Assembly (NCBI GenBank): GCA_963773905.1
Contig: CAVZDB010000005.1
Span: 181,624 to 245,623 of the forward strand
Direction of reading: 5' to 3'
Source of the DNA: an uncultured Acidobacteriota bacterium
GTDB taxonomy: Bacteria; Acidobacteriota; Thermoanaerobaculia; UBA5066; Gp7-AA6
Length of the DNA: 64,000 nt
Made by a program: the position numbers and the translations under genes. Under the pieces are notes generated by a model. The model saw only the letters and a program-made list of their open reading frames with translations. It was not told the origin of the DNA and did no database searches. Positions 11,159 through 38,788 of the stretch are shown in pieces. Position 1 is the first letter of the stretch, and the number at the start of each line of letters is the position of its first letter.

Positions 11159-11186
11159 GGGGCCAGTCCTGATTTCTGATTTCGGG
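11159..11186 (+). repeat. GGGGTCA-family site (degenerate)
   Basis: ggggccagtcctgatttctgatttcggg versus ggggtcagtcctgatctctgaactcggg at 35282. Confidence 0.7.
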
Positions 11187-13678: not shown

Positions 13679-13742
13679 GGGGAGACTGTAACCGGAGAAC
13701 GAGACGCAGGAATACGCGATTGACCTCGAGGGCGTGCCTAGA

Positions 13743-21952: not shown

Positions 21953-21999
21953 GGGGTCAACGCTGAAAAACTGAATTCAGGGATTCAGCATTTGAACCC
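21953..21999. repeat. GGGGTCA-family inverted dimer (GGGGTCAACGCTGAA variant)
   Basis: ggggtcaacgctgaa...ttcagcatttgaaccc; similar copies at 26969 and 31118. Confidence 0.85.
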
Positions 22000-22326: not shown

Positions 22327-22340
22327 GGGGTCAGTCCTGA
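22327..22340 (+). repeat. GGGGTCAGTCCTGA site
   Basis: Exact core, 36 bp from the start codon of cassette A copy 1. Confidence 0.8.
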
Positions 22341-22530
22341 TCCCCAACCCGGCCTCAACAGACTCCTTTAGGCCTGGTGATGAATCGCTGATCGAAAAAC
22401 AGCTTGCCCGTGCCGACCCTGGGGCGTAGATCGGGGGATGGATTCACGAGAATGAGTCTCTACCCAACTGCCCGGCCTCCTGTTCCGCGAAAAATCAAGA
22501 CTGACCCCTACCCTCTCGAGGAGGCACGTC

Positions 22531-25160: not shown

Positions 25161-25186
25161 AATACACGAATACACGATTGACTCCC
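25161..25186 (-). repeat. GGGGTCA-family site matching the RAYT terminal repeat
   Basis: aatacacgaatacacgattgactccc versus tacaggaatacacgattgacccc at 34984. Confidence 0.8.
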
Positions 25187-25826: not shown

Positions 25827-26618
25827 CTAGATCATTGTGTAGTGAATCTTGGCTCCGCCGTCTTTCTCGCCAAGGACGAGTGTTGCCTGGATGACATAAG
25901 GCGCCTCGCGTGTGACCCACCACGTGCTCGAGCCGTAGAGCTTCGTCTCGATCTGGACGACCCACGTCTCCGCCGTCTTGCCCTTTCCGGCCGGCACGGT
26001 CTCACGGCCACTGACGCGCAGATGGATCCAGTCCACCGCGGCGCGATCGGTGTCGAACCCCGAGAAGCTGACCTCGTAGCCCTCGCGTAAGGGAAACGCG
26101 TCGATCAGGATTCCGTACATCCCGTCGTAGAAGTCGAGGACGCGGTGGTCCAACTTCGCTACGTAGTCCTGAGCGAAGTCGTCGTCCGAGCCGGGCCTCC
26201 TGAGGAAGCGGATCGACTGGCCGTCGGACTCGAGGTGCCGGGACTCGCCGTTGTCGCTCCGCGTGTAGTCGAAGACATGGACCGCCATCGACTTCGGGTC
26301 GAAGACGTCCACGAACGTGATCCGGATCCCCTTCTTGTACTCGGCGACTTGAGTGCGCTTCAGAGCCGGACGCCCTCCAAAGGAGACCGACTCCATCACG
26401 TCCGTCCACACTCCGGCCTCGACCGGCGCCGACCCCGGCTTCTCGATCGAGAACGACCAACGGTTTGTGTAGGGGTGCAGAAACGAACCATTCACCACCG
26501 GATCGCCGCCCTCGACGCGAGGCCACTCCTCGGCGCTCATCCCTTCGCCGACGAGAAGACACAGCACGGCGCAGGCTGCGGCAGATGCCACCCGTCTGCC
26601 GATGATTGGGATTCGCAT
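25827..26618 (-). CDS. Secreted hypothetical protein, possibly DUF3108-like
   Basis: Signal peptide; VSGRETVPAG...ETWVV beta-rich pattern. Confidence 0.7.
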   Translation of the reverse strand: MRIPIIGRRVASAAACAVLCLLVGEGMSAEEWPRVEGGDPVVNGSFLHPYTNRWSFSIEKPGSAPVEAGVWTDVMESVSFGGRPALKRTQVAEYKKGIRITFVDVFDPKSMAVHVFDYTRSDNGESRHLESDGQSIRFLRRPGSDDDFAQDYVAKLDHRVLDFYDGMYGILIDAFPLREGYEVSFSGFDTDRAAVDWIHLRVSGRETVPAGKGKTAETWVVQIETKLYGSSTWWVTREAPYVIQATLVLGEKDGGAKIHYTMI

Positions 26619-26746
26619 GCGAGCCTCCAAGCCTGGCGCCTCGACCCATCGACGAGGCCGCACTGCCCTTGTTACCGTCCTCCCTGCCGGAATCCAACGA
26701 CGAAGGGTCGAACGACCATTTCGGCCGGCCGAAGCCGTGTCTGTGC

Positions 26747-26770
26747 GGGTCAGTCCAGATCTCTGATCTT
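26747..26770 (+). repeat. GGGGTCA-family site
   Basis: gggtcagtccagatctctgatctt. Confidence 0.75.
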
Positions 26771-26968
26771 GTGCGCAGTCAATGCGCTGGCCACGTCTCT
26801 GTGATCTTCACGAAGCGACCTCGCGAGGGCGTCTGACCCGTGCACGTCGCCAACGTGCTTTCAACCAGTGTTTCGATGCCCTTCGCCACAGCCATGGCCG
26901 ACAGCATCACCCGGGATCAGACGGGTGGCTTCCATTGCAAAGGCCTCCGTTTGATCTGGTCGCGGCCT

Positions 26969-27016
26969 GGGGGTGAACGCTAAAAAGCTGAATTCAGGGG
27001 TTCAGCGTTTGAACCC
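26969..27016. repeat. GGGGTCA-family inverted dimer (AACGCTGAA variant)
   Basis: gggggtgaacgctaaaaagctgaattcaggggttcagcgtttgaaccc. Confidence 0.8.
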
Positions 27017-27031
27017 ATTCCTGTTCGGAGC

Positions 27032-27310
27032 CTACCGGCGTTTTCCGGCCGCGGGGGACTTGGCCTTTTTGGCCTTCTTGGCCTGGGAGGCCGCCGCCTT
27101 CTCGACCGCCTTGGTGAGACTCTCGACGAGCTTCTGCGAGTCCTTGCTGGCGCGGCCGAGCTCGCCCGCCGGAGCGGTCTCGCGCTTCCCGAGCACCCAC
27201 TCCAGGGCGTAGGTCATCGCGGCGCCTTCCGCGATGTAGAAGCCGCTGAGCTCCTTGACGCGCTCGCGGAGGGCCGACACCTGACCCTTGATCTCGGTCT
27301 CGGATTTCAC
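27032..27310 (-). CDS. Small hypothetical protein, cassette A copy 2
   Basis: MKSETEIKGQVSALRERVKELSGFYIAEGAAMTYALEWVLG. Confidence 0.75.
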   Translation of the reverse strand: MKSETEIKGQVSALRERVKELSGFYIAEGAAMTYALEWVLGKRETAPAGELGRASKDSQKLVESLTKAVEKAAASQAKKAKKAKSPAAGKRR

Positions 27311-27351
27311 GGCAGGATCCTGACACAGTCAGGACGGACGCCAGCTAGCCC

Positions 27352-28239
27352 TCATGCCCCTTCGATCGGACCGGGTACACAAACGGTGATGGCACCAGCC
27401 TCCACATGGACATCGAGACGCTTCACCGGAGCCCGGGTGCTTCCATCGAGCTCATACGCCTGCTTGTGACGGAACTCAACGACGATCCTCTTTGCCTGCC
27501 TGATGTCGACGAGCGGGGAGCGGTCGGGGCGACCTCCCGCGACTCGTGAGAAGACCCTCAACCACTGGAAGGCGGTCCGCGCGGTGACGACCCCAACGTC
27601 GAGCTGACCGTCGGAGGGCGAGGCGTCCGTGAAGACGGTGACCCCACCCGTAATCGTACCGATGTTGCCGATGAGCAGACAGCTCGCGTTACCCTCGAAC
27701 CAGATCGTGTCGTCCAGACGGACTTGCATCCAGAGCCGCTTCGCAAACATCGCTTTCACACCGTTGCCCAGGTAGGCCAGGCGCCCCAATCGCCTCTTGG
27801 CCTTGCCCTTCGTGTCGGCGATGATCGCGTCGAATCCCGTCCCGGCCATCGCCGCGAAGCGCTCTCCGTTCAGGACACCGACGTCGAGGCGCCGGTGAGT
27901 CCCCGTGAGTCCGATCTCGACGCATTTCGCGATGTCCCTGGGAATCCCAAGACTCGTGGCCAGGAGATTGCCGGTGCCGGCAGGCAGGATGGCCATCGCC
28001 GTCTCCGATCCGGCCAGGACATCGATGCAGCGCTGGACCATTCCGTCGCCGCCCCAAACGAAAACGAGCGTTGCGCCGTCCTTGACTGCCTTGCGCACCG
28101 CATCAGGCGCCTTCTTGCTCTTCGGTACCTCGTACCAGATGGGTTGCCGATACCCGCGGGCGGCGAGCGCTCCTCGCAACTTCTCCAGACCACCTCCCAG
28201 CGTCTTACCGCTGTGAGCAACGACGGCAATCTCGGCCAC
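27352..28239 (-). CDS. Diacylglycerol kinase family (YegS/DagK-like) lipid kinase
   Basis: WGGDGM, LPAGTGNLLA, GTGFDA and YELDG motifs. Confidence 0.9.
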   Translation of the reverse strand: MAEIAVVAHSGKTLGGGLEKLRGALAARGYRQPIWYEVPKSKKAPDAVRKAVKDGATLVFVWGGDGMVQRCIDVLAGSETAMAILPAGTGNLLATSLGIPRDIAKCVEIGLTGTHRRLDVGVLNGERFAAMAGTGFDAIIADTKGKAKRRLGRLAYLGNGVKAMFAKRLWMQVRLDDTIWFEGNASCLLIGNIGTITGGVTVFTDASPSDGQLDVGVVTARTAFQWLRVFSRVAGGRPDRSPLVDIRQAKRIVVEFRHKQAYELDGSTRAPVKRLDVHVEAGAITVCVPGPIEGA

Positions 28240-28360
28240 GAGGGGAAAAGTCTACTTCTCGCGGGGCCGAGGCGACGGTCCGGGGGGTCCGTACATCAGG
28301 CGTTGGATTCGGCGGCGCAGGAGTATCACCGAACTCGTCGCACGGCGCCCGAGGCTCAGA

Positions 28361-28383
28361 ATCAAAGGATCAGGACTGAACCC
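28361..28383 (-). repeat. GGGGTCA-family site
   Basis: atcaaaggatcaggactgaaccc, 13 bp from the stop codon of the adjacent gene. Confidence 0.8.
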
Positions 28384-28395
28384 ATTGAGTCCCGT

Positions 28396-29123
28396 TCAGT
28401 GCCCGACCTTCGTGTCCTCCGTCCCATCCGACCACTTGGCGACCGGAATCAGGAACACGGTCAGTGCGATTCAGCTTGTCCTCGGCTCCGAAGATCGGAG
28501 AGCCCGGCAGGTCTGCGCCCCACGCCGAAGATTCCGTGAGCGGCATGAAGAACATCAGGTGAGGATGCCAGTGCCCGCCACTATCGCCCAGGTACTGCTG
28601 CTTCGACAGCATGTAGCACATGGCGCCGGGTCCCGGCGCCTGGAATTCCTTCTTGTCGAAAGCGGCCTGGATCGCCTCGGCCATCCGATCCTTGGACTGT
28701 CGACGCCAGGATCGATTCGGTCCTCTTCATCGAGATGGGAACGTAGGACCGCACGGCGGCCGCATTAAAGCAGATCGGACCCCGCAGCTTGGGATTCCAG
28801 AAGTTCGGATCGTCGAGGGGGGCGGACCATCCTCGTTCGACCAGGCACAGGAAGCCGTTCTTTCCCTGGACCGCGGTCTCGTAGCCATGTTGGCCGAGGA
28901 CCATGACCGAGGCATCCCGCGAGATGGATTCCGGAGCGGCGCTGCGCGCCAGCGCGATCTCGGCATCCCGTTCCATCCGATACTGCTCCACCGGCGCCAT
29001 GTTCGGATACGGCGTCGTCTTGGCATCCTGTGCAAGCGCAGCACCCGCCGCGCCCGCGGCGCCGAGCACGACGGCCAGCGCCAGGCGTCTCGAGGCGAAC
29101 GATCCGAGAGTCTTTCGCGACAT
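28396..29123 (-). CDS. Secreted conserved hypothetical protein, frameshifted near 28700 and 28460
   Basis: YPNMAPVEQY, EIALARSAAP, AMCYMLSKQQYL, HWHPHLMF and KWSDGT across frames. Confidence 0.75.
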
Positions 29124-29143
29124 GTGGTCCTCCTTGGGGAGTC

Positions 29144-29548
29144 CTACTTCTTCAGGCTCGTCTTCCAGGTGCCGGTGTCGACGACCTTGCCCTTGTACAA
29201 CGTCTCGAACTTTCCCGAGAACGTCGGGCCGGCCTTCGTGCCCGTGATCCGGGAAGAGGCCTTGTGGCCCTTGACCTCGAAGTCGTAGGCGGCCTCGATG
29301 GAGTCGCCCTTCACGACGAGCGAGGTCACGGGGGATTTCGTTGGCTGCCCGTCCAGCACGGCGATGACTTCGCCGGTCCAGTTGCCGCCTGGGCCCGGGC
29401 TAAAAGTGAGTTGATAGCCGCCGCTCTTGCCTGCCTTATTGACGTATTCGCCGACGTACGTTCCGGCGATATCTTCCTCGGCGCGCACTACGACGGACAT
29501 CAGAATCAGGGCCGCGAGGGTAAGCACAATCGCAAGGTTTCGTCTCAT
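29144..29548 (-). CDS. Secreted hypothetical protein, cassette B copy 1
   Basis: Signal peptide; near-identical to 32939-33337. Confidence 0.75.
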   Translation of the reverse strand: MRRNLAIVLTLAALILMSVVVRAEEDIAGTYVGEYVNKAGKSGGYQLTFSPGPGGNWTGEVIAVLDGQPTKSPVTSLVVKGDSIEAAYDFEVKGHKASSRITGTKAGPTFSGKFETLYKGKVVDTGTWKTSLKK

Positions 29549-29633
29549 GGAGGCAAAGTTACCATCACGGCGAGATGTGAATGAGATGGCGCCGATGACA
29601 GGACTTGAACTGGTGAGCTGCGTGCGGGCGAAA

Positions 29634-29909
29634 TCAGAAATCAGCCGATCGGCGGAAGGGAACGAGTCGGCGGATCCGGCGGTCCCGCAAGTACAGGCCG
29701 CCCCAGGCGAGAATTCCTACGGCCAACGGAATCGCCGCGCGCGCCGCGTCGCCAACCCGCAAATGCGCAGCCACCGCGCCGCCGAGATAGCCAGTCATCA
29801 GGATTGCGGCGAGGACAGACGTTTGCGGGACGAGGTAGAGCACCACCAGGGCGCATTCCGCAATGACGATCGGGAGGATGGCCGATTCGGGATAGCCATA
29901 GCCCGTCAC
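29634..29909 (-). pseudogene. N-terminally truncated DoxX family gene
   Basis: LYLVPQTSVLAAILMTGYLGGAVAAHLRVG is the C-terminal half of DoxX; the 5' part is absent beyond the site at 29916. Confidence 0.7.
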
Positions 29910-29924
29910 GATTTCGGTCAGTCT

Positions 29925-31089
29925 CGATCGCCCGCCTGGAAGTTAGTTCTCCTTGTTCTGGCTGAAGTTGACCTGGTACGGCTTCCCGCTCTGCGCGATG
30001 GCGAGGAGGCGGTGGCAGAGCTTGCGCGAGACGGCCACGATGGCGCGCTTCCCGCCGCGGCGAGCCTTAATCCTGTCGTAGAAGCGCCGCATCTCCGGGT
30101 CCTTGCCGATCAGGATCCAGGAGCTCTCCACGAGGACGCTGCGAACGACCGGGTTACCCTGGCGCGTGATGTGACCGTGGCGGATGCGCTCGCCGCTGGA
30201 ATGCTCGGAGGGAGTCAGGCCGGCGTAGGAGCTCAATGCCTCGCCGTCGGGGAAGCGGGAGAAGTCCACGATCTCCACGACCAGCGTAAGCGCCGTCAGC
30301 CAGCCGATCCCAGGAATGGTCGACAGCAGCTCCACCATCGGCGCGTAGTCTTCGGACCGGGTCATCTGGCGCAGCTCCTTTGTCAACGCATCCACGCGGG
30401 CGTCCAGATCGAAATAGATACCGCGCAGCTCCTCGAGCACGCGATCGAGCGAGCGATCGTCAAGCTTCAGCCCGCGCAGCCACGCCTCGAAGTCCCCGCT
30501 CCAGTGCGCGCCCGCCTCTTCGGGAATCTCGATGTCGTAGGTTAAAAAGAACGACTTGATCCGCACCATCGCCGCGCAGCGCTCCCGCTGCACCCGGTGG
30601 CGCTGGCGAACCAGCTCGCGATCTGCACGCTGCCGCACTTCCGGAACGAAGATCGGCCTCAGCAACCCGGCCTCCAGAGTCCGCGCCAGCTTAAGCCCGT
30701 CCCGACGATCCGTCTTCACCCGGTTGCCGATCTCCCCAGGCACGTGCGCCGCGGACACCACCATCGAATCCACCTGGCGCAATCGCAGCCAGTCGTGTAG
30801 CCAGTATCCAAACGGCCCCGTCTCGTACGCGCTGTGGACCCGACATCCCTCAAACCGAGCTAGCAGCCCGTTAAGCGCCTCTCGCCTAGGAGGGAAGCTC
30901 GCACTCAGCAGCGTCTCGCCTCCAGACCGAGCCGTCACGTGCCAGGACGTCTTCGAAATATCCAGCCCCAGAAACACCTCGGATCCGCTCGCCAACCTCA
31001 CTCCATCGCGCATGGCCCTCCTCCTCACCCTCAGAGTGCCACGCAAGCCTCCCTTCCTCCGCCCGTCAGCCACGGCCCTAACATAGCGG
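29925..31089 (-). mobile_element. IS110-family insertion sequence inserted within a GGGGTCA-family site
   Basis: Flanks ggtcagtct (29916-29924) and tgattctttgattttt (from 31091) rejoin into ggtcagtcttgattct, matching the reverse complement of the intact site at 36101-36121; no TIR or long TSD. Confidence 0.8.
29943..31013 (-). CDS. IS110 family transposase/recombinase (DEDD RuvC-like plus Tnp20 domain)
   Basis: FLGLDISK, YETGPFG, VKTDRRDG, TIPGIG and YAGLTPSEHSSG; GAGGAGG RBS before ATG 31013. Confidence 0.95.
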   Translation of the reverse strand: MRDGVRLASGSEVFLGLDISKTSWHVTARSGGETLLSASFPPRREALNGLLARFEGCRVHSAYETGPFGYWLHDWLRLRQVDSMVVSAAHVPGEIGNRVKTDRRDGLKLARTLEAGLLRPIFVPEVRQRADRELVRQRHRVQRERCAAMVRIKSFFLTYDIEIPEEAGAHWSGDFEAWLRGLKLDDRSLDRVLEELRGIYFDLDARVDALTKELRQMTRSEDYAPMVELLSTIPGIGWLTALTLVVEIVDFSRFPDGEALSSYAGLTPSEHSSGERIRHGHITRQGNPVVRSVLVESSWILIGKDPEMRRFYDRIKARRGGKRAIVAVSRKLCHRLLAIAQSGKPYQVNFSQNKEN

Positions 31090-31117
31090 TTGATTCTTTG
31101 ATTTTTCGGCGGGTCTT

Positions 31118-31276
31118 GGGGTCAACGCTGAAAGGCTGAATCCAGGGATTCAGCGTGAACCCCATTCCTGCCCCATCGAATCAGATTCAGGGCTGACCCC
31201 AGCTAGCCCCAACCCGACAGCCGTGGTCAGCAGCGAATTCAACGTGGCGAACAATCAAAGAATCGGCACTGACCAC
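31118..31276. repeat. Cluster of GGGGTCA-family sites
   Basis: Dimer 31118-31163, then gaatcagattcagggctgacccc 31178-31200, then degenerate aatcaaagaatcggcactgacc 31253-31274. Confidence 0.8.
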
Positions 31277-31318
31277 TTAACGCTCCTCTCGCACGAGAGT
31301 CTCGAACTCGGCGTTCCG

Positions 31319-32747
31319 CTACCTCCTTGACCCCGGTCGACTAACAATGTGCGTGCAACGGAAACAGCCAATCCTGAAGTAGAGCGTGTTCGACACGATG
31401 GCCCCGGGGTTCTGCAAGCACTCGACGCTCGCTTCGCCCAGCGCACTCAATTCTGAAGCCGATACTTCAGTCGTGATCAGGTTCTCGGACTGGACCGTTG
31501 ACGGCCGCGGTTGGCCCCGCCACAGGACGACAGCGCCTGGAGCATGTGATTTCCCAAAACGTAAAGCGTTGTTGCCGGAGATCTCAACCGGACGTCGGTT
31601 GGGTCGAGATTGATGATCTTGGCTTCACGGCTTGGTAACGCAATGCCGTACCCCATCCGATTCAGGGCGTAGAGGTCCCACCCGTAATGTTGTCGTGTTC
31701 GCCACTCGCAAGAGTTGGGTCCATGATTCCAACGTAATAGCCGAATAGTTCATTCGCTTTCCAATGGCTTGCCTGTTGATGATCGCCACCGGAGCCATCA
31801 GGGCGGCCGGTCGATAGGGGGGCGAAACTCCCCTGGCTCCAGTAATCGTGGTCGCCGCCCGACGAGAGAACTCGATCTTCAGATGCGAAGGTAACTGGGC
31901 CCGGCCGGAAACGGTTGAAGTCCCACACGGACGCGACGAGGGGCAAACTCGGATCCAGCTCGGTGAATCCGACTGCCGACAGGAAACCCAAGGCGTGGCC
32001 GATTTCGTGCGTCGCGGTGCTAGAGAAGTCTGTCAAGAAGGGCTCGATACCGTCCGTAGGATCGAAATCCCAGGAAAATGCAGAATTGAAGCCGATTTGG
32101 GATGCTGGATCTGATGATGTCGCCGCTCGCAAGAGTCCGAGCTCCCGCATGACGGGCGACGGCGCCACCACGAGACTCACCGGGCCGATATCCGTCGGCA
32201 GACTTCCATGCGGCAGCGATTGGATTTCTGAGCTCGACCTGTAGAGGCTCGTTAACGCGGACCTAACGTCGGAGTAGTACTCGACGTCCACATCGGGTGA
32301 AGTTGAACCTAGGGTTTCCGGGTCCGAAAACGGCTCGCCAAATGCCGCCGGCCCGAAATCAACGTCGATGTACACGGTCATCGCGTTGGTTAGCAGGCTC
32401 TCCCAAAGGTCGGCTGCACGAATAAAGGCCGCCTTCGCCTCGGGATAACGCTCGAGTTGAGCGGTGCCGCGCAGGACGATCTTTAGGCCCGCTGCAACTT
32501 CGGAGATGGCCTCTCCTGATTCCGGCAAATGATTAATTTGATTCAGCTCGAGCCGGCTTCCGGCACGCCTTTCTATATCGCCTCGTCCAGAGAGTTCTGC
32601 TTCGCACCTGACCCGCCCCTCGCCTTTTCGAAGAACAAAGCGGATATCTCGGAACCCTCTTGAAGAGTAGTCCTCGCCAAAGGCGGCCCCAGTAAGGGCA
32701 ACGAAAGCGATCGCGGTCACGATCCACCGGCGTCGTTGCATACACAC
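31319..32747 (-). CDS. Secreted zinc metalloprotease (HEXXH) with probable C-terminal Ig-like domain, frameshifted near 31680 and 31550
   Basis: HEIGHALG, QASHWK and IMDPT; other frames continue to SNTLYFRIGCFRCTHIVSRPGSRR*; visibly lower GC. Confidence 0.75.
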
Positions 32748-32825
32748 CTCTCGACGAAGATCTACTACCCAACGTTCTTGCGATCGAGATGACTGAGGGA
32801 CATTTTACATGATTGGGCATTTGGC

Positions 32826-32890
32826 GGTCAGTCCTGATCTCTGATCTCGGGCTAGTTCGCAGAGCGCAATCAGAAATCAGGACTGAACCC
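32826..32890. repeat. GGGGTCA-family inverted dimer
   Basis: ggtcagtcctgatctctgat...atcagaaatcaggactgaaccc. Confidence 0.88.
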
Positions 32891-32938
32891 AATTAGCCCA
32901 AGAACAACCCACCCTGTGCTGCTCTCGACCCGTGAGTC

Positions 32939-33337
32939 CTACTTCTTCAGACTCGTCTTCCAGGTGCCGGTGTCGACGACCTTGCCCTTGTACAACGTCT
33001 CGAACTTTCCCGAGAACGTCGGGCCGGCCTTCGTGCTCGTGATCCGGGAAGAGGCCTTGTGGCCCTTGACCTCGAAGTCGTAGGCGGCCTCGATGGAGTC
33101 GCCCTTCACGGCGAGCGAGGTCATGGGGGATTTCGTTGGCTGCCCATCCAGCACGGCGATGACTTCGCCGGTCCAGTGGCCGCCTGGGCCCGGGGTGAAA
33201 GTGAGTTGATAGCCGCCGCTCTTGCCTGCCTTGTTGACCTACTCGCCGACGTACGTTCCGGCGATGTCTTCCTCGGCGAGCGCTGCGACGGACATCAGCA
33301 TCAGTGCCGACAGGGCAAATGCAAGGTTTCGTCTCAT
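32939..33337 (-). pseudogene. Cassette B copy 2 with an in-frame TAG
   Basis: Colinear with 29144-29548; the Tyr codon TAC is TAG at 33239-33241. Confidence 0.75.
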
Positions 33338-33368
33338 GGAGGCGAAGTTACCATCTCGGCCAGATGTG

Positions 33369-33390
33369 ATCAGAAATCAGGGCTGACCCC
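33369..33390 (-). repeat. GGGGTCA-family site
   Basis: atcagaaatcagggctgacccc. Confidence 0.85.
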
Positions 33391-33402
33391 AATTAGGCCG
33401 GT

Positions 33403-33690
33403 TCATTCGCTATAGTCGACCCATGTGACAGAGTTATAGGTACGCCAGTAATAAATGCGGTCGTCGCTATCGACATAGATCTGTGTCACGGCGTTCGGAT
33501 AGCTACCCCAAATGAGGATGTGTCCGCCGCGGCCATCGGGGCGGACATCCTCGGGTGGGCCCATGCCAGCGCCGGCGATAAATTCTGCTCCCGTGCTTCC
33601 CATCCATGAGTTCATTAACTTTTGTGTGCTTGTACACGATTGGGCCGCGAGTACGGATAGCAGCAGTAGGCTCCGCAGCAAGCGCTTCAT
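33403..33690 (-). CDS. Small putative lipoprotein
   Basis: MKRLLRSLLLLSVLAAQSC signal with Cys; GGAG RBS. Confidence 0.7.
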   Translation of the reverse strand: MKRLLRSLLLLSVLAAQSCTSTQKLMNSWMGSTGAEFIAGAGMGPPEDVRPDGRGGHILIWGSYPNAVTQIYVDSDDRIYYWRTYNSVTWVDYSE

Positions 33691-33814
33691 AGATTGCTCC
33701 TTCGACGACAGCAGGAGGGCTGGCCCAATTGTGCGCCTCCCGCCGCTTCTCGGCAATCGGCTTTTGATTCCGATCCTAGAAATGCGGGGCGCCTTTCAGC
33801 GCCCCGGTGTGCGA

Positions 33815-33894
33815 GGGGTCAGTCCTGATTCCTGACTTTACGGTTCGGCCGGCCCGCGGGACGGTTCAGGCAATCAGGGATCAGGACCGAACCC
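33815..33894. repeat. GGGGTCA-family inverted dimer
   Basis: ggggtcagtcctgattcctga...aatcagggatcaggaccgaaccc. Confidence 0.85.
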
Positions 33895-33939
33895 ACCTTC
33901 CCGCCTGGTCGCCGCCTTGCAGTCTTAATGCAATGATCC

Positions 33940-35006
33940 GGGGTCAATCGTGTATTCCTGTATTTCCCGCTTCGAAGAGGCAAGCCAGGCGGTCGACGTG
34001 ACCGCGAACTGAGTCGTCTCGCGTCATCAACTTCTCGAGCCTGGTCAGACCGCGGTGAAACGTCGACTCCTCGCGCCTGAAGCATCTCGCCATCCGGGCA
34101 ATCGAGAATCCCTCACGACAACCGAGATACGCAGCGATCAGCCGGGTCCGTGAGGCCGCCGAAGACTTTCCGGCCCGCCTCAGCTCTTCCAGGGAGAAGC
34201 CCTCCGCCTTGGCGACCGCATCGGCCAGGCTCTCAGGGGTCCACCCGCTGGGAAGTCGGACGGTCTCCCCCACGATCGCCATGGATCGCTGGACGAACTC
34301 CGGATCTCCCTTGACTGGGAAGCCGCCGGCGACGTCGTCGTAGGACTGCTGGTCGCGGTCTCCCATCATTCGCCGGTAGGCCGCCGCGGCCCCCCTCCGA
34401 TCCGACGCGAGTCGCCCCATCGCGACGTCCAGATCCAGCCAGTCTGGGCCACGTCCGCTTCGGTAGTAGCGATCGCTCGACCACGAGTACGACTCGGGCC
34501 GACTCACCATCCCGGCTCGGACCGGGTTGAGGTGGATGTATCGAAGCAGCGCGAAGAGGTACTTCTCATCTTGAATGAGAAAGGCCTTGTACCGCCCTTG
34601 GAAGAGATGGCCCGATCGCCGGTGCTTCGAGTTGAAACGCTGTGCGTAGAACGAATGCAGCGCCAGCATCGCGCGAGAGAGCGGAAACGGTCCACGCTCC
34701 ACCGCCACGTGAATGTGGTTGCTCATCAGGCAGTACGCCAGGATACGAAGCCGGAATCTCTCCCGGCACTCCGCAAGCCGCTCGAGGTAGATCTCACGAT
34801 CCCGGTCGTCGCGAAAGATGGCCTTGCGTTCGTTGCCGCGGGCAATCACATGGTAGACCGCCCCGGTGAGCTCAACCCGAAACGGCCGCGCCAACGACAC
34901 CTCCGCAGACACCGAGATCCTCTCCCTGCGTCTATCTAAGGTTGTCGCGAACGGTCACGCCCGCGGCGCGGCGAGCGAAGAATTACAGGAATACACGATT
35001 GACCCC
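33940..35006 (-). mobile_element. RAYT-like Y1 transposase unit bounded by perfect 23-bp inverted repeats
   Basis: ggggtcaatcgtgtattcctgta (33940-33962) and tacaggaatacacgattgacccc (34984-35006). Confidence 0.85.
33944..34894 (-). CDS. REP-associated tyrosine transposase-like Y1 HUH nuclease with C-terminal DnaA-C-like helical domain
   Basis: ARPFRVE..GAVYHVIARGNERKAIF, HUH motif YCLMSNHIH, GHLFQGRYKA, catalytic RYIHLNPVRAG and YSWSS; the stop codon lies in the left IR. Confidence 0.9.
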   Translation of the reverse strand: MARPFRVELTGAVYHVIARGNERKAIFRDDRDREIYLERLAECRERFRLRILAYCLMSNHIHVAVERGPFPLSRAMLALHSFYAQRFNSKHRRSGHLFQGRYKAFLIQDEKYLFALLRYIHLNPVRAGMVSRPESYSWSSDRYYRSGRGPDWLDLDVAMGRLASDRRGAAAAYRRMMGDRDQQSYDDVAGGFPVKGDPEFVQRSMAIVGETVRLPSGWTPESLADAVAKAEGFSLEELRRAGKSSAASRTRLIAAYLGCREGFSIARMARCFRREESTFHRGLTRLEKLMTRDDSVRGHVDRLACLFEAGNTGIHD

Positions 35007-35029
35007 TTAGAGCTCTTAGAGCTTCTCGA

Positions 35030-35224
35030 TCACGGCGTCGTCCGAGTGATCCGGGATCTCGAGAAGCGTGAGACAGGGCTTCTGAACCGCTTTCTCTCGT
35101 TTGCGGCTTTCGCGATTCGTCGCGTCTCCCACACGTACCACCCCAAACCAAACAGGGTAAGGATCCCGAGCACCGTGCTCACAACATGAAAGGAGGCATC
35201 TGTCATAGAGAGACAGGCAATCAA
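35030..35224 (-). other. Probable gene fragment (one TM helix) between sites
   Basis: VLGILTLFGLGWYVWETRRIAKA; short, bounded by sites at 35006 and 35282. Confidence 0.4.
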
Positions 35225-35281
35225 ATCACGAAGTCAGCACCGATCGGACCCAGAGCAGTACCAGACTAACCCCGGGACTCT

Positions 35282-35348
35282 GGGGTCAGTCCTGATCTCT
35301 GAACTCGGGCTGCTTCGGAGGGCGAAGTCAGAAATCAGGACTGACCCC
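35282..35348. repeat. GGGGTCA-family inverted dimer (best-conserved copy)
   Basis: ggggtcagtcctgatctctga...tcagaaatcaggactgacccc. Confidence 0.9.
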
Positions 35349-35394
35349 GATTAGCCGCCGAGGCCACGCCGGCGGCGCAGCGGCGGGACAAATG

Positions 35395-35412
35395 GGAATA
35401 CACGATTGACCC
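35395..35412 (-). repeat. Further copy of the RAYT terminal repeat
   Basis: ggaatacacgattgaccc, 16 bp from the stop codon at 35428. Confidence 0.85.
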
Positions 35413-35427
35413 GCTGGAGCTCCGCGA

Positions 35428-35985
35428 TCAGTAGTCCTTCGTCGTCATTGTGATTCGGAGTCGCGTCGTCGGCTGGAGCGATGCCGCGGGTAGAGACCAT
35501 GTCACCTGTTCTTGCTGGCCCTCGCCATTGTCGGGCGCCTTGAACTGCACAATCTCCGACTTCACCGACTCCTCCCCGTTCACTGCGTCGAGCCTCACGC
35601 TGACCATCTTGTCGTGGTTGTGCTTAGGGTTCTGTACCGCGACCTCCATCTCGACTTGGACTTGCCCGCCTGGGAGATCCTTGACGCGCATCCGGATGCC
35701 GGGGTCCCACTGCTTCTTGCGATCAAGGTCTGACCGGAAGAAGACTCCGTCACAGGAGAACTTGCCGAGCTCCCACCATTCGTGCAGGGTGAACCAGCTC
35801 CCGGAGCTCCCGGCCGGCCACTTTACCCGATCGCCGGCGGCAAAATCGGTCTCGAGAACCATCGGTGAATGAAAGGCGTTCGCGTCGACCGGCGTCGAGG
35901 CCTCCGATCCCTGTTTAGCCACGACCTGGGCGCCGGAAGTCGACGCCAATGTCAAAATCCACAATGAAATCAGCGCTATTCTCAT
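35428..35985 (-). CDS. Secreted hypothetical protein
   Basis: Signal peptide MRIALISLWILTLASTSGA; GGAG upstream. Confidence 0.75.
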   Translation of the reverse strand: MRIALISLWILTLASTSGAQVVAKQGSEASTPVDANAFHSPMVLETDFAAGDRVKWPAGSSGSWFTLHEWWELGKFSCDGVFFRSDLDRKKQWDPGIRMRVKDLPGGQVQVEMEVAVQNPKHNHDKMVSVRLDAVNGEESVKSEIVQFKAPDNGEGQQEQVTWSLPAASLQPTTRLRITMTTKDY

Positions 35986-36021
35986 AACTTCTCTCCATCA
36001 GCCGGATCGGAACGGCTCGAA

Positions 36022-36121
36022 GTCAGTCCTGATTGTCTGCAGATCGAAAAAGCAAAGAATCAGTACCAACTCCTTTCTCGACCCCATTTCTACCCGGAAA
36101 AGCAAGAATCAAGACTGACCC
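36022..36121. repeat. GGGGTCA-family sites (degenerate dimer)
   Basis: gtcagtcctgatt (36022) ... agcaagaatcaagactgaccc (36101-36121). Confidence 0.75.
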
Positions 36122-36143
36122 TCCACAAACCCATCGGAGCTAC

Positions 36144-37058
36144 TCAGCTCTCATCGAAATAATCCGAATCCAGGCGCTTCACTTGATACGTCCGAGCTTG
36201 TGAAACACCAATCTCAAAGTCGATCATGAGTTCGGCCAACCGACGCCCATCGATTAAAGCGACCTTGGGATCGATGTGCTCCACGTAGGCGAGTGCTTCC
36301 GCCGAAAATGACCCGGTCGTGATGAAGACGCCCTTCTTCGCGCGTTTGCCGTGCAGAGCACCCACAAACTTGTGGATTTCGGGGCGGCCCACCGTTCCGT
36401 CCCACCGCTTCGCCTGGAGGTAGACCACGTCGAGGCCAAGCCGATCCTCGCTGATGACGCCATCGATCCCTTCATCCCCCGACTTACCGATAGCCTGTCC
36501 AGCGTCCTTCCGCGAGCCCCCGTAGCCCATCTTCAGCAGCAACTCGACCACCAGTTCCTCGAAGAACGAAGGCGATGCCGCCTTCACGCGGGCGATGACT
36601 TCTGCTGCGAGACCTGCTCTGATCCTTGCGTGGGCCGCCTCAAGGGCTTCTTCCGGTGTTTCAGTTTCCTCTTGCGACGTCGCGCTCATGCCAGGCGTCG
36701 CTTCCTCTTGAGACCGGGCCGTCCTGAACTCGACAAACTCCGGATATCGATCGAGAAACTTGATGTCGACTCGGGTGGGAGGATTCTTGAGGACCTCCCG
36801 ACCTCTCTCGGTCAGCTGGAAGTGGCCGCGTCGCGGTGGAGCTGAGGAGCCCGGCTTGCTGAAGGTAGCTTCTCGCCCAAGCGACGCGATTCGCAAATCT
36901 GGTCTGCCGCCCGCTCGGAAGAAGCTCTTCCTTGTCGTCAGGAGTCAGCTGAACTCAACCGCGAGGGCGTTGGCCGCCGCAGCCAATGAATGGGCTTCGC
37001 CGTCGGCGGCAATTTGTAGGAGGGGCAGCATGAATGATTGGAAGTCAGGCACAGTCAT
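36144..37058 (-). CDS. mrr: Mrr type IV restriction endonuclease, frameshifted at about 36850-36960
   Basis: N-terminal MTVPDFQSFMLPLL and LLPSGRQ; C-terminal FFEELVVELL, SGDEGIDG, YLQAKRW and KGVFITT. Confidence 0.9.
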
Positions 37059-37124
37059 GAGGGCTATTATCTGCTCTCTGAGTGGAGTGGTCGCGCACGC
37101 CCCGCCAACGGTCGCAAGCGACAA

Positions 37125-37147
37125 TTCAGAGACTCAGGACTGACCCC
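37125..37147 (-). repeat. GGGGTCA-family site
   Basis: ttcagagactcaggactgacccc. Confidence 0.85.
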
Positions 37148-37171
37148 ACTCCTGCCGAACTAACGTTGCGC

Positions 37172-37459
37172 TTAGGGGCCAGGCAAGTTAACCCATTGAC
37201 CCGAAAACCGCTCATACCAAAGCTTCCGTACTTCTCTTTTGAGATCCCGATCGGTGAGTTTGCGGTAGTCGAGGTGGACTTCGATAATCAGGTCTCCGCC
37301 CATGTGAAGCGCGGAAGCCTCTTCGCTAGTCAGAATGACCGTCTTCATGAGCGGCGCGTCCATCCCATCGCCGATCATTAGGGATTTATTTTGAGGGACG
37401 ACCTCATCTTCTGGGGTCGATGACCGGCCCTCCAGAGTGATGACCGAGTAGGCATTCAC
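37172..37459 (-). CDS. Hypothetical protein; probably extends upstream through frameshifts
   Basis: Lower-GC ORF whose stop is 25 bp from a site; no recognisable motif. Confidence 0.4.
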   Translation of the reverse strand: MNAYSVITLEGRSSTPEDEVVPQNKSLMIGDGMDAPLMKTVILTSEEASALHMGGDLIIEVHLDYRKLTDRDLKREVRKLWYERFSGQWVNLPGP

Positions 37460-37991
37460 GTTGAGGGCTACCGACGTTCCGACGTTGCGGACGTGCGGCA
37501 GCAGGTTAATGGGGCCCGCCAGCCAACTGCCTTCCTAGCGACGGCGCCTCAACCATGAACTCGGGACTCTGAAGCGCCTGAGAGACGTGGAGAGTTCTGT
37601 CTGCTATTAACCAAGCTGCGACAACCGCGAAAATACGCGGCTCCCAGGGTAAGCTGAGCGATTGTTAGAGTTCGCCTGGCTACAACAAGGCTACTCTCAG
37701 CAATCTCAACCGACCTGTCGGCGATACCGTTCGCGCGGCGCGCGAGTTCGTTCGCGTCGCGTGTAAGCGGAAGACGATTGCTTTCCGCTAAAAGATGCGC
37801 GTGCAGGACTTCGAGGCTTGCGCTTCCCCCACATGGTGCGCGCTACGTTTTCGAACCGGGAGACGATTAGGTCGAAGCTCTTCTCGCCAGGGCCGCGTCA
37901 AACCTCGCTTTCATCTCGCCCAGGCGTTCGGTGACTTGTCGGGTTTCAGAGTCTGCGCGTAACGGGGCGCGTGTACGCTAGATCCTGAGCT

Positions 37992-38315
37992 TCAAGGCTT
38001 CTTCTCCTGCAAGGGTGTTGACTCACAAGAATAAGCCTCTCCAGATGCGTGAATGCCTGATGCGACGACGAATACAACATTTCCTCCCAAGTCCGCGGTC
38101 TTGTTTTGAAGTGTCTTCTCGGTGTTCGAGAGCCCGCCAGGCCGGTTCCTGCCGAGCCACCCCATCCCGAAGTCGCCTTGACATTCCCCAGGAACTTGCA
38201 ACCCTTGACAACGTCAGGGTTGCTCGTGACGCGCGCTGCTTTCACCCGCGGGAGTTGTCGACACGCAGGCATTGAATGTCAGCATCGCGACAGCCGTTAG
38301 GATCCTCGAGCTCAT
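37992..38315 (-). CDS. DUF4156-like lipoprotein, frameshifted
   Basis: MSSRILTAVAMLTFNAC lipobox; VKGCKFLGNV...LQNKTADLGGNVV...GEAYSC. Confidence 0.7.
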
Positions 38316-38583: not shown

Positions 38584-38788
38584 GGGCGGGCGCGAGGCCC
38601 GCCCCTACGGTTTCGGGGATGGAATCAACGGCGGAAAGCGAGGGAGAAGAAGAGTGCAGCGTGGCGTGGTTGGGGTCCGCCGTGGCGGGCGGACGCGAAT
38701 GGACGGGCACCGAGAGGGCGGGCGCGAGGCCCGCCCCTACGGTCGTGGCGGCGACAGGACGACGGGCGGGGGCAAGCCCCGCCCCTGC
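38584..38788 (-). repeat. Three GTAG-type REP palindromes
   Basis: gggcgggcgcgaggcccgcccctac at 38584 and 38716, variant at 38764; the minus strand reads GTAG plus a GC hairpin. Confidence 0.85.

Follow-up and report, generated by a model that had tools for sequence, protein, structure and literature searches.

A Y1 transposase gene between GGGGTCA inverted repeats in an Acidobacteriota genome: a probable single-copy TIRtron accompanied by repeat pairs of sister lineages

In the 64,000-nucleotide stretch of Acidobacteriota DNA analysed here (the window), a Y1 transposase gene lies between inverted repeats that begin with GGGGTCA, and short gene-less repeat pairs of the same polarity are found around it, which raises the question of what kind of element this is and whether the pairs derive from it. 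Very probably, the unit is a TIRtron, with a single-copy gene for a TIRYT that carries a DnaA domain IV-type domain, with GGGGTCA terminal inverted repeats, and with neighbouring dimers of repeat types B and C that stem from sister lineages (Table 1). A perfect 23-bp inverted repeat had been described around the gene, and we confirmed it: GGGGTCAATCGTGTATTCCTGTA is present at 33940-33962 (+) and at 34984-35006 (-) with 0 mismatches, a third copy at 25163-25185 (-) has 2 mismatches, and 100 shuffles used as a control gave 0 matches. With the repeat finder, the arms of the element reach 27 nt at 96% (33940-33966 / 34980-35006) with 1013 nt in between, and the only long ORF between them is the TIRYT gene (33944-34912, -). 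As also noted before, the stop codon lies inside the left arm, because TCA (+) at 33944-33946 is the TGA of TGACCCC, and the 3' type A repeat codes for the final residues of TIRYT as well as for the stop. The head of the gene's own arms, GGGGTCAA, fits the GGGGWSAS motif at 7/8 positions, the last one being A and not S, while the head of the type B arms, GGGGTCAG, fits at 8/8. Single type A arms do not fold beyond their shuffles (z +0.16 and +0.64) and the GTAG tag is absent from them, so the earlier view of a Y1 (HUH) gene bounded by terminal inverted repeats and not by hairpin ends stands. Relatives of the 1067-bp TIRtron measure 1027-1148 bp and are bounded at the same heads.

Table 1. Positions of the TIRtron, its domains and the repeat copies in the window
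Feature	Position	Strand	Details
Whole TIRtron	33940..35006	.	1067 bp; bounds GGGGTCA...TGACCCC
3' terminal inverted repeat, type A	33940..33966	+	head GGGGTCA + ATCG + TGTATTCC + TGTATT
5' terminal inverted repeat, type A	34980..35006	-	ends 67 nt upstream of the start codon
TIRYT gene	33944..34912	-	322 aa; GTG start, GGGAGAGGA 6 nt upstream
Y1/HUH catalytic domain	34478..34879	-	aa 12-145; Pfam Y1_Tnp 6e-14
HUH motif, H66-I67-H68	34709-34717	-	in the Y1 domain
Catalytic Tyr125	34538-34540	-	in the Y1 domain
C-terminal DnaA domain IV-like helix-turn-helix	33965..34240	-	aa 225-316
Solo type A arm	25163..25185	-	2 mismatches; tandem CGTGTATT units intact
Solo type A arm	35393..35413	-	3 mismatches
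Solo type A arm	13707..13727	-	2 mismatches over 21 nt
Type B dimer (hairpin)	35282..35348	.	67 nt; DNA fold -23.2 kcal/mol, z -7.2
Type B dimer	32824..32890	.	67 nt; z -4.5
Type B dimer	33815..33894	.	80 nt; right arm decayed, 4 edits; z -2.8
Inverted type B arms	22327..22508	.	~150 nt apart
Decayed type B-like pair	36018..36123	.	5 edits per arm
Type C dimer	21953..21999	.	arms abut (GGGGTCAACGCTGAA...); z -3.7
Type C dimer	26970..27016	.	found by repeat finder and edit-distance scan
Type C dimer	31118..31163	.	z -4.8
Solo B/D-like arm	31181-31202		after type C dimer 31118..31163
Solo type B arm	33370..33390	-	1 mismatch
Solo B-like arm	11159-11179	+
Solo B-like arm	26746-26766	+
Solo B-like arm	28362-28384	-
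Solo B-like arm	37127-37147	-

The NCBIfam model REP_Tyr_transpos (NF047646, REP-associated tyrosine transposase) matches the protein at 86.1 bits, above its cut-off of 80, and the NCBIfam IS200 model (NF033573) gives 19.3 bits, below its cut-off of 55. H66, H68 and Y125 are invariant among the 62 sequences aligned. The best Foldseek match of the Y1 domain is TnpAREP of E. coli (4er8_A, E 9e-6, TM 0.72 on the target), which the family profile also reaches with E 8.5e-5, and further matches (2xma, 2vjv, 2a6m) are IS200/IS605-type HUH/Y1 cores. The AlphaFold model of TIRYT has a pLDDT of 91.8. At the C terminus, the family profile detects the DNA-binding domain of DnaA (3pvp, E 3.5e-7, profile positions 230-319), and the predicted fold of this domain superposes on 3pvp with TM 0.86-0.88, rmsd 1.6 A and 27-28% identity and on 1j1v with TM 0.85, while Pfam Bac_DnaA_C scores the single sequence at 0.014 only, under its cut-off. 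A promoter and terminator scan found nothing in this sequence and says nothing either way, because ~0.2 hits are expected by chance and the scan is uninformative for Acidobacteriota.

TIRYT is here a TnpAY1 of subclass 2.1, a kind that has already been published. The consulted sections of Di Nocera, De Gregorio & Rocco (2013, BMC Genomics 14:522; PMC3733652) describe the TIRYT and its "TIRtron" with GGGGWSAS repeats, dimeric repeat families, a sharply defined Acidobacteria group and a 3' repeat that overlaps the gene, and those of Quentin et al. (2018, BMC Genomics 19:475; PMC6006769) assign a Bac_DnaA_C-like C terminus to subclass 2.1 and call the GGGG-type head unlike a DnaA box. As far as these sections go, the published elements and ours have in common a RAYT-like Y1 protein that exceeds the length of a RAYT and has a C terminus with a DnaA_C-like helix-turn-helix, long terminal inverted repeats, headed by a GGGGWSAS-type motif, the 3' one of which lies over the gene end, further repeat copies as singles, dimers and groups, and an Acidobacteria group; they differ in that the window gene's repeat has an A at the last head position. 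We do not regard the recognition site, earlier called atypical, as new in kind, since the same sections of the two papers (PMC3733652, PMC6006769) already give this arrangement with the GGGGWSAS motif. They contain no mention of tandem co-varying ~8-nt units, of the head TGA as stop codon, of repeat families lacking a cognate gene or of a tight local clustering of arms. In the literature searched, we found neither TIRYT biochemistry nor a demonstration of DNA recognition by a TIRYT.

Classical RAYTs/REPtrons with their REPINs (E. coli TnpAREP, 4ER8; Pseudomonas REPINs) share with the window element the HUH/Y1 fold, 4er8 being the best structural match, a single-copy gene between inverted repeats, hairpin-forming inverted doublets and one repeat type per enzyme lineage. 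In contrast to these systems, the window arms have neither the GTAG tag nor a hairpin in the single repeat, and the protein has an additional DnaA-like domain; whereas REPs number tens to hundreds, the window types are of very low copy (5-11 arms per type) and their arms are clustered, not dispersed. The HUH/Y1 catalytic core is also common to IS200/IS605 (IS608 and ISDra2 TnpA), as is the lack of a target-site duplication, none being seen at the element ends. However, the ends are symmetric terminal inverted repeats and not differing subterminal hairpins, and the gene is single-copy while IS200/IS605 elements have several near-identical copies. TIRYTs form the branch of the RAYT/IS200 superfamily that lacks hairpin ends.

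The short dimers reported at 21953, 31118, 32824 (then 32826), 33815 and 35282 are present with the GGGGTCA...TGACCCC polarity, and so are the solo copies near 25161-25186 and 35395-35412 (2 and 3 mismatches over 21 nt). The preliminary description took the dimers for the same repeat variant as that of the gene, which is right for the head and the layout; the 14-16 nt that follow the head differ among types A, B and C, and the dimers are of types B and C. Likewise, REPIN/MITE-like dimers of the same architecture do exist but, having arms of types B and C, they did not arise from this gene copy by internal deletion. Five dimers fold as long and stable single-strand DNA hairpins with z between -2.8 and -7.2. 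Dimers were mapped by an edit-distance scan; an ungapped genome-wide scan misses all but 2 true dimers, owing to indels between the arms. No type A dimer was found in this genome with the edit-distance scan, its type A arms being the two flanking ones and three decayed solo arms. Type A has thus not multiplied in this genome, and any activity of the element here would be putative. The number of arms per type in the genome is 5-8 for type A and 11 for type B. When up to 4 substitutions over 21 nt are allowed, 20/24 arms of the genome lie within this window (reversed-pattern control: 2), and nearly all arms are found within ~26 kb around the TIRYT gene. Rfam at gathering threshold gave 0 matches between 9000 and 40000. 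The region is a low-GC, transposase-bearing stretch.

In related genomes, type B and type C repeats flank paralogous genes of 44-48% identity (loci L006/L007/L008/L104/L106 and L107/L108). Each of the related genomes has 2-6 family members, which within one genome are diverged paralogs (33-61% identity to the window protein) with a repeat type of their own. Genes of type B or C, or remnants of them, were not detected in this assembly, which is 81.7% complete, so that "orphan" may simply mean that the gene is unassembled. Perfect type B arms amount to 1/8 in this genome as compared to 15/19 in G024, a genome that carries a type B gene; in G006, which is 98% complete, there are 5 type B-like arms and 0/4 protein matches are of type B. 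As part of the best explanation, the B and C dimers probably stem from sister lineages, the genes of which have either been lost or not been assembled, and these dimers are decaying.

These observations also bear on another reading, which takes the 1067-bp unit for an autonomous insertion sequence that is active at present and derives the dimers around it from that same element by internal deletion. Perfect arms over 23 bp and the 2-6 family members per related genome would fit such an element, as would the type A elements of three same-genus genomes, which have sharp ends exactly at the heads and unrelated flanks outside; by blastn and tblastn (tblastx is noisy in high-GC DNA), 0/15 neighbour proteins have a counterpart within +-20 kb of a type A element in G003 or G006. 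However, the assembly contains one copy of the TIRYT gene and no identical second copy, so that the previous designation as an autonomous element is not supported. The members within a genome are diverged paralogs with their own repeat types, type A dimers are absent here, and the score of the IS200 model remains well below its cut-off. In addition, L003 and L005 sit at one site, between flanks that are identical in the two genomes, a pattern consistent with vertical descent. We therefore regard an active insertion sequence as quite unlikely and retain the single-copy TIRtron with dimers of sister lineages. In G003, which carries a type A gene, four type A dimers of 81-93 nt are present.

We then considered the homologs. 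GGGGTCA is present in both arms at 50/66 loci that encode a homolog of at least 280 aa, and the repeat type tracks the protein tree with a clade-specific sequence after the head, so the test proposed from the window alone gave a positive result; the remaining long-homolog loci have GGGTCA (4), a partial head (5) or no repeat (7). Among the shorter homologs (<280 aa), GGGGTCA arms are seen in only 1/65 and GGGAC-type repeats in 39/65. The head TGA serves as stop codon in 31/66 loci, and in 19/25 within the clade of the window protein, where the gap from the 5' repeat to the start codon is mostly 16-84 nt. This survey argues against the possibility that the enzyme in fact acts on GTAG-tagged REP hairpins (for example at 38584-38788) rather than on the GGGGTCA repeats, since the homologs are flanked by GGGGTCA arms and not by GTAG REPs. 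In its favour, GTAGGGGCGGG occurs 69 times, on 8/9 contigs, and apart from the window gene the assembly has no intact Y1 gene. But a separate, classical RAYT-like gene on contig C4 (~574760-575250), broken by frame changes, has GTAG REPs on both sides, so the GTAG REPs have their own system, and we judge it highly improbable that they are the substrates of TIRYT.

Within the clade of the window protein, the head of the repeat is followed by 4 nt and then by two ~8-nt units in tandem, which co-vary. Over 16 repeat types, unit 1 agrees with the unit 2 of the same type at 5.94/7 positions and with that of other types at 3.76/7, and 0/10000 permutations reached the own-type value. In a broader scan, an exact run of at least 5 at period 6-10 was detected in 20/50 types, whereas 500 shuffles gave 2.6 such types on average and 9 at most. 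The 8-nt period does not correspond to the helical repeat of duplex DNA. The distance between repeat tails correlates with the distance between proteins (Spearman) for the N-terminal (0.48), middle (0.46) and C-terminal (0.42) parts; because all three correlate about equally, the covariation gives no preference to the DnaA-like domain, and the partial correlations of the tail with the protein parts are weak (0.27 vs 0.15).

A further reading is that TIRYT has been domesticated and is immobile, its DnaA-like domain binding the 5' repeat units mainly to autoregulate transcription, and the scattered arms being remnants or hairpins used by the host. The gene is single-copy, the 5' repeat keeps a short and constant spacing to the start codon among the homologs (16-84 nt in most of the clade), the tandem direct units resemble operator or iteron sites, and the arms of this genome are decayed, all of which is compatible with such a role. 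However, the same units are present in the 3' repeat and in the gene-less dimers, where no promoter is expected, and the 15/19 perfect type B copies of G024 point to recent copying; we hold domestication to be unlikely.

For a TIRtron, the steps may be sketched after those of IS608 TnpA and E. coli TnpAREP. Two inverted arms on single-stranded DNA, for instance at a replication fork, would pair as a hairpin whose foot is GGGGTCA/TGACCCC, the Y1 domain would cut at the heads via Tyr125, and the cut piece would be moved or copied, mostly over a short range. More speculatively, the variable DnaA-like domain might bind the tandem units as a lineage-specific address. Where the enzyme cuts, on which form of DNA it acts and what its C-terminal domain does are all inferences. 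The repeat could accordingly be imagined as bipartite, with GGGGTCA as a universal nick-site head for Y1 and the two ~8-nt units as a lineage address for the fast-evolving DnaA domain IV-like domain, a tentative proposal that we find possible but rather doubtful. If true, several paralogous transposase-repeat systems could share a genome without cross-talk, and such a repeat would take the place of hairpin recognition, which to our knowledge is used by all characterised Y1 transposases. It would also resemble the iterons of rolling-circle Rep proteins; the Rep proteins of geminiviruses and plasmids are HUH nucleases with a conserved nick site beside short tandem direct repeats that vary between lineages. 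Unlike them, the window nuclease is of the Y1 transposase subfamily and comes without replication origin or helicase, and its binding to the units is putative.

For this genome alone, the outcome is an ordinary annotation, namely one TIRtron and the decaying repeat pairs of what are probably two sister lineages. Together with its relatives, the locus provides matched protein-repeat pairs, in which the head is constant and the tandem units co-vary over 16 or more repeat types, and these pairs could serve to ask whether a DnaA-type domain addresses a single-strand nuclease. Regarding the folding of single arms in the wider family, the median MFE is -2.9 kcal/mol for long homologs vs -3.6 kcal/mol for short ones (p = 0.03, the related sequences being non-independent), too small a difference to rely on. 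The contrast is plainer by eye, as many arms of the short homologs display a stem around a GGGAC loop.

The transposase gene of the window is bracketed by a perfect inverted pair of the 23-mer GGGGTCAATCGTGTATTCCTGTA (0 mismatches), for which 0 of 100 shuffles gave a match, and it is the sole long ORF between these two arms. As the preliminary description had claimed, the gene ends inside the left repeat, its TGA stop belonging to the TGACCCC head, and every dimer and solo copy listed there was found in the window. A repeat finder widens the arm pair to 27 nt (96%, spacer 1013 nt). The element is a fresh member of a known, barely studied family. RAYT-like genes with long terminal inverted repeats in place of GTAG REPs were reported by Di Nocera et al. 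2013 (PMC3733652), who coined the names TIRYT for the gene and TIRtron for the unit; the available part of that paper describes repeats with a common GGGGWSAS motif, whose 3' copies overlap the gene and whose families comprise singles, dimers and groups, as well as a sharply defined Acidobacteria group of TIRYTs. In the available part of Quentin et al. 2018 (PMC6006769), TIRYTs form TnpAY1 subclass 2.1, with a Bac_DnaA_C-like C terminus. A full-text search for 'TIRYT' returned no work besides these two. The preliminary interpretation had recognized the right kind of element, although this kind is not new, having been published as the TIRtron, and the details of the dimers were wrong.

Coordinates of the TIRtron and neighboring features (window positions)
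Feature	Position	Strand	Remark
Type A arm, left	33940-33962	+	GGGGTCAATCGTGTATTCCTGTA
Type A arm, right	34984-35006	-	GGGGTCAATCGTGTATTCCTGTA
TIRYT gene	33944-34912	-	322 aa
Solo type A arm	13707
Solo type A arm	25163-25185	-	2 mismatches to GGGGTCAATCGTGTATTCCTGTA; also given as 25165
Solo type A arm	35393
Type B dimer	32824-32890		hairpin-forming
Type B dimer	33815-33894		hairpin-forming
Type B dimer	35282-35348		hairpin-forming
Other type B dimers			hairpin-forming
Type C dimer	21953		hairpin-forming
Type C dimer	26970		hairpin-forming
Type C dimer	31118		hairpin-forming
Solo arm	31181-31202		GCCCTGA tail
Solo arm	33370-33390		GCCCTGA tail
Low-GC stretch	26000-38000		GC 58-64%
IS110-family transposase	29943-31073	-	within low-GC stretch
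Mrr-type restriction endonuclease gene	36144-36896	-	within low-GC stretch
GTAG REPs	38584-38788

The protein matches Pfam Y1_Tnp (6e-14, aa 18-127) and, below threshold, Bac_DnaA_C (0.014, aa 227-285); it passes the NCBIfam model of REP-associated tyrosine transposases (86.1 bits, cut-off 80) and falls far below that of IS200 (19.3 bits, cut-off 55). Its HUH/Y1 catalytic core is intact, with the HUH motif (H66/H68) and Y125 invariant in an alignment of 62 homologs. Used as a profile, this alignment matches E. coli TnpAREP (4er8) at 8.5e-5 and, through profile positions 230-319, the DNA-binding domains of DnaA (3pvp, 3.5e-7). In a confident AlphaFold model (pLDDT 91.8), Foldseek places TnpAREP nearest to the N-terminal domain (E 9e-6, TM 0.72 on target), while the modeled C-terminal domain has the DnaA-IV fold, superposing on DnaA domain IV with a DnaA box (3pvp) at TM 0.86-0.88, rmsd 1.6 A and 27-28% identity, and on 1j1v at TM 0.85.

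In order to examine the repeats across homologs, 149 loci were collected, L101 (a duplicate of the window) and L122 (from an unpublished genome) were removed, and the 131 loci without an internal stop and with sufficient flank were kept. The phylum tally of 58/301 takes in two unpublished genomes (G063 and G088), on which no other claim depends. The check proposed in the preliminary description, for a conserved GGGGTCA repeat flanking the homologs, came out positive for the long ones: among the 66 loci encoding at least 280 aa GGGGTCA heads both arms in 50, with GGGTCA in 4, a partial head in 5 and no convincing repeat in 7. Only one of the 65 shorter homologs has it on both arms; 39 have GGGAC-containing repeats, GGGAC often being the loop of a small hairpin, and 15 have none. 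In some lineages (L114, L115 and, among the shorter homologs, e.g. L037, L054, L086) the conserved GGGGTCAGGTCT or GGGGACGGTTCT motif sits in a hairpin loop, for example on a CCGAAAAA...TTTTTCGG stem, and not outermost in a plain repeat, a hint that hairpin-type and terminal-repeat-type ends grade into each other within one protein family.

The tail behind the head is clade-specific when mapped on a maximum-likelihood tree of the 62 long proteins. The window protein, whose nearest relatives come from Acidobacteriota MAGs, groups with L021, L002 and L004 (SH-aLRT 96), all of which have its tail, type A (ATCG TGTATTCC TGTATT); the repeats around the clade L006/L007/L008/L104/L106 have type B tails and those around L107/L108 type C tails. 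The elements measure 1027-1148 bp and their ends coincide exactly with the heads, outside which flanks are unrelated, except for the identical flanks of L003 and L005 in two genomes, and no target duplication was seen. The TGA of the head is the stop codon in 31/66 loci, and in 19 of the 25 from the clade of the window protein.

In that clade (25 rows) the arm consists of the 7-nt head, 4 nt and a tandem pair of units, each about 8 nt long, such as TGTATTCC/TGTATT, CTGATTT/CTGATTT, CTGAATTC/CTGAAT, TGCAAAC/TGCAAAC and TGCGATA/TGCGATA. We compared one row per repeat type (16/25, picked by eye from the tree, omitting near-duplicates and a single repeat-less row): unit 1 agrees with its own unit 2 at 5.94/7 positions, a value attained by 0 of 10000 permutations, versus 3.76/7 for unit 2 of other types, and downstream arms gave 5.69 versus 3.75. 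A wider scan found an exact run of at least 5 at a period of 6-10 in 20/50 distinct tails (500 shuffles: mean 2.6, maximum 9). The units are lineage-specific, and the feature is not general: in the other large clade, GGGGTCAGGTCT followed by a different sequence prevails. Within it, the 3' arm of L018, L020 and L116 continues, beyond the inverted repeat, into TTCGGAT repeated two or three times in tandem, so tandem units may exist there as well, on one side only.

Recognition of the tandem units by the DnaA-like domain is speculative. In its favor, the N-terminal domain and head are conserved while the C-terminal domain and tail vary (mean p-distance 0.45 versus 0.74 for the two domains), a basic residue aligned to the Arg of the SRQ motif of the M. 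tuberculosis DnaA domain is present in 25/25 rows, and the stretch aligned to the DnaA RDHTT turn is similar within and different between repeat-type clades. Arguing against it are the equal correlation of tail distance with all parts of the protein and the 8-nt period, which differs from the duplex helical repeat; Quentin et al. (PMC6006769, available part) also doubted repeat reading by the C terminus, because the head is unlike a DnaA box. The tandem-unit architecture is a lead open to testing.

The dimers had been taken for internally deleted derivatives of this gene, which did not hold: their arms are of types B and C, and type A is represented in this genome only by the two flanking arms and three decayed solo arms. 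An active autonomous IS accompanied by its own deletion derivatives is unlikely here, since type A dimers are absent and the gene is single-copy, being the sole Y1 gene above threshold in the assembly (4.19 Mb, 9 contigs, 81.7% complete). Type B and C proteins of relatives matched nothing in this assembly besides the type A gene; the genes cognate to these two repeat types are thus either lost or unassembled. Type B arms are perfect in 1/8 cases here versus 15/19 in G024, a related genome with a type B gene; G006 (98% complete) has 5 type B-like arms and 0/4 protein matches of type B, and in G003, where a type A gene is present, there are four type A dimers of 81-93 nt. Altogether, the idea of MITE-like pairs derived from TIRtron ends is upheld at the level of the family, whereas in this genome it does not apply to the gene copy of the window. 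In the related genome G006, type A arms at C1:1325182-1334498 and 2610093-2617075 form same-orientation arrays with an exact 267-bp spacing occurring twice, which suggests that the arm is carried by larger tandem units rather than inverted dimers. The two solo arms with a GCCCTGA tail resemble in this tail the L003/L005 lineage repeats; they point to a fourth type (D) or a B/D hybrid, likewise without a cognate gene.

Folded as single-stranded DNA, the dimers are far more stable than shuffles (z -2.8 to -7.2), while a lone type A arm has no fold advantage (z +0.16 and +0.64). By analogy with IS608 TnpA and TnpAREP, TIRYT would act on single-stranded DNA, in which the inverted arms would pair with the heads at the hairpin foot, and Tyr125 would cut at the heads. 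Self-regulation via the 5' repeat is possible and compatible with such action at the element ends.

Allowing at most 4 substitutions from four 21-mer types, 20 of the 24 arms of the genome fall in the window, all within 11159 to 37147 (reversed-pattern control: 2); in relatives, arms are likewise concentrated around the gene or in a small number of arrays. The low-GC stretch (about 69% genome-wide), where several ORFs have no Pfam match, looks like a variable island surrounding the TIRtron. Tandem units, arm clustering and low-GC context are features beyond the descriptions in the available parts of PMC3733652 and PMC6006769.

The assembly has 69 occurrences of GTAG-tagged REP hairpins (GTAGGGGCGGG...), distributed over 8/9 contigs. 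Action of TIRYT on these REPs is unlikely, given that contig C4 has a separate classical RAYT-like gene between GTAG REPs, albeit frame-broken. The C4 sites lie at about 574100-575350 and 580799-581192. This gene reads in at least 3 different frames, so either the REPtron has decayed or the assembly is wrong there, and four GTAG REPs with a 123-bp spacing lie 6 kb from it.
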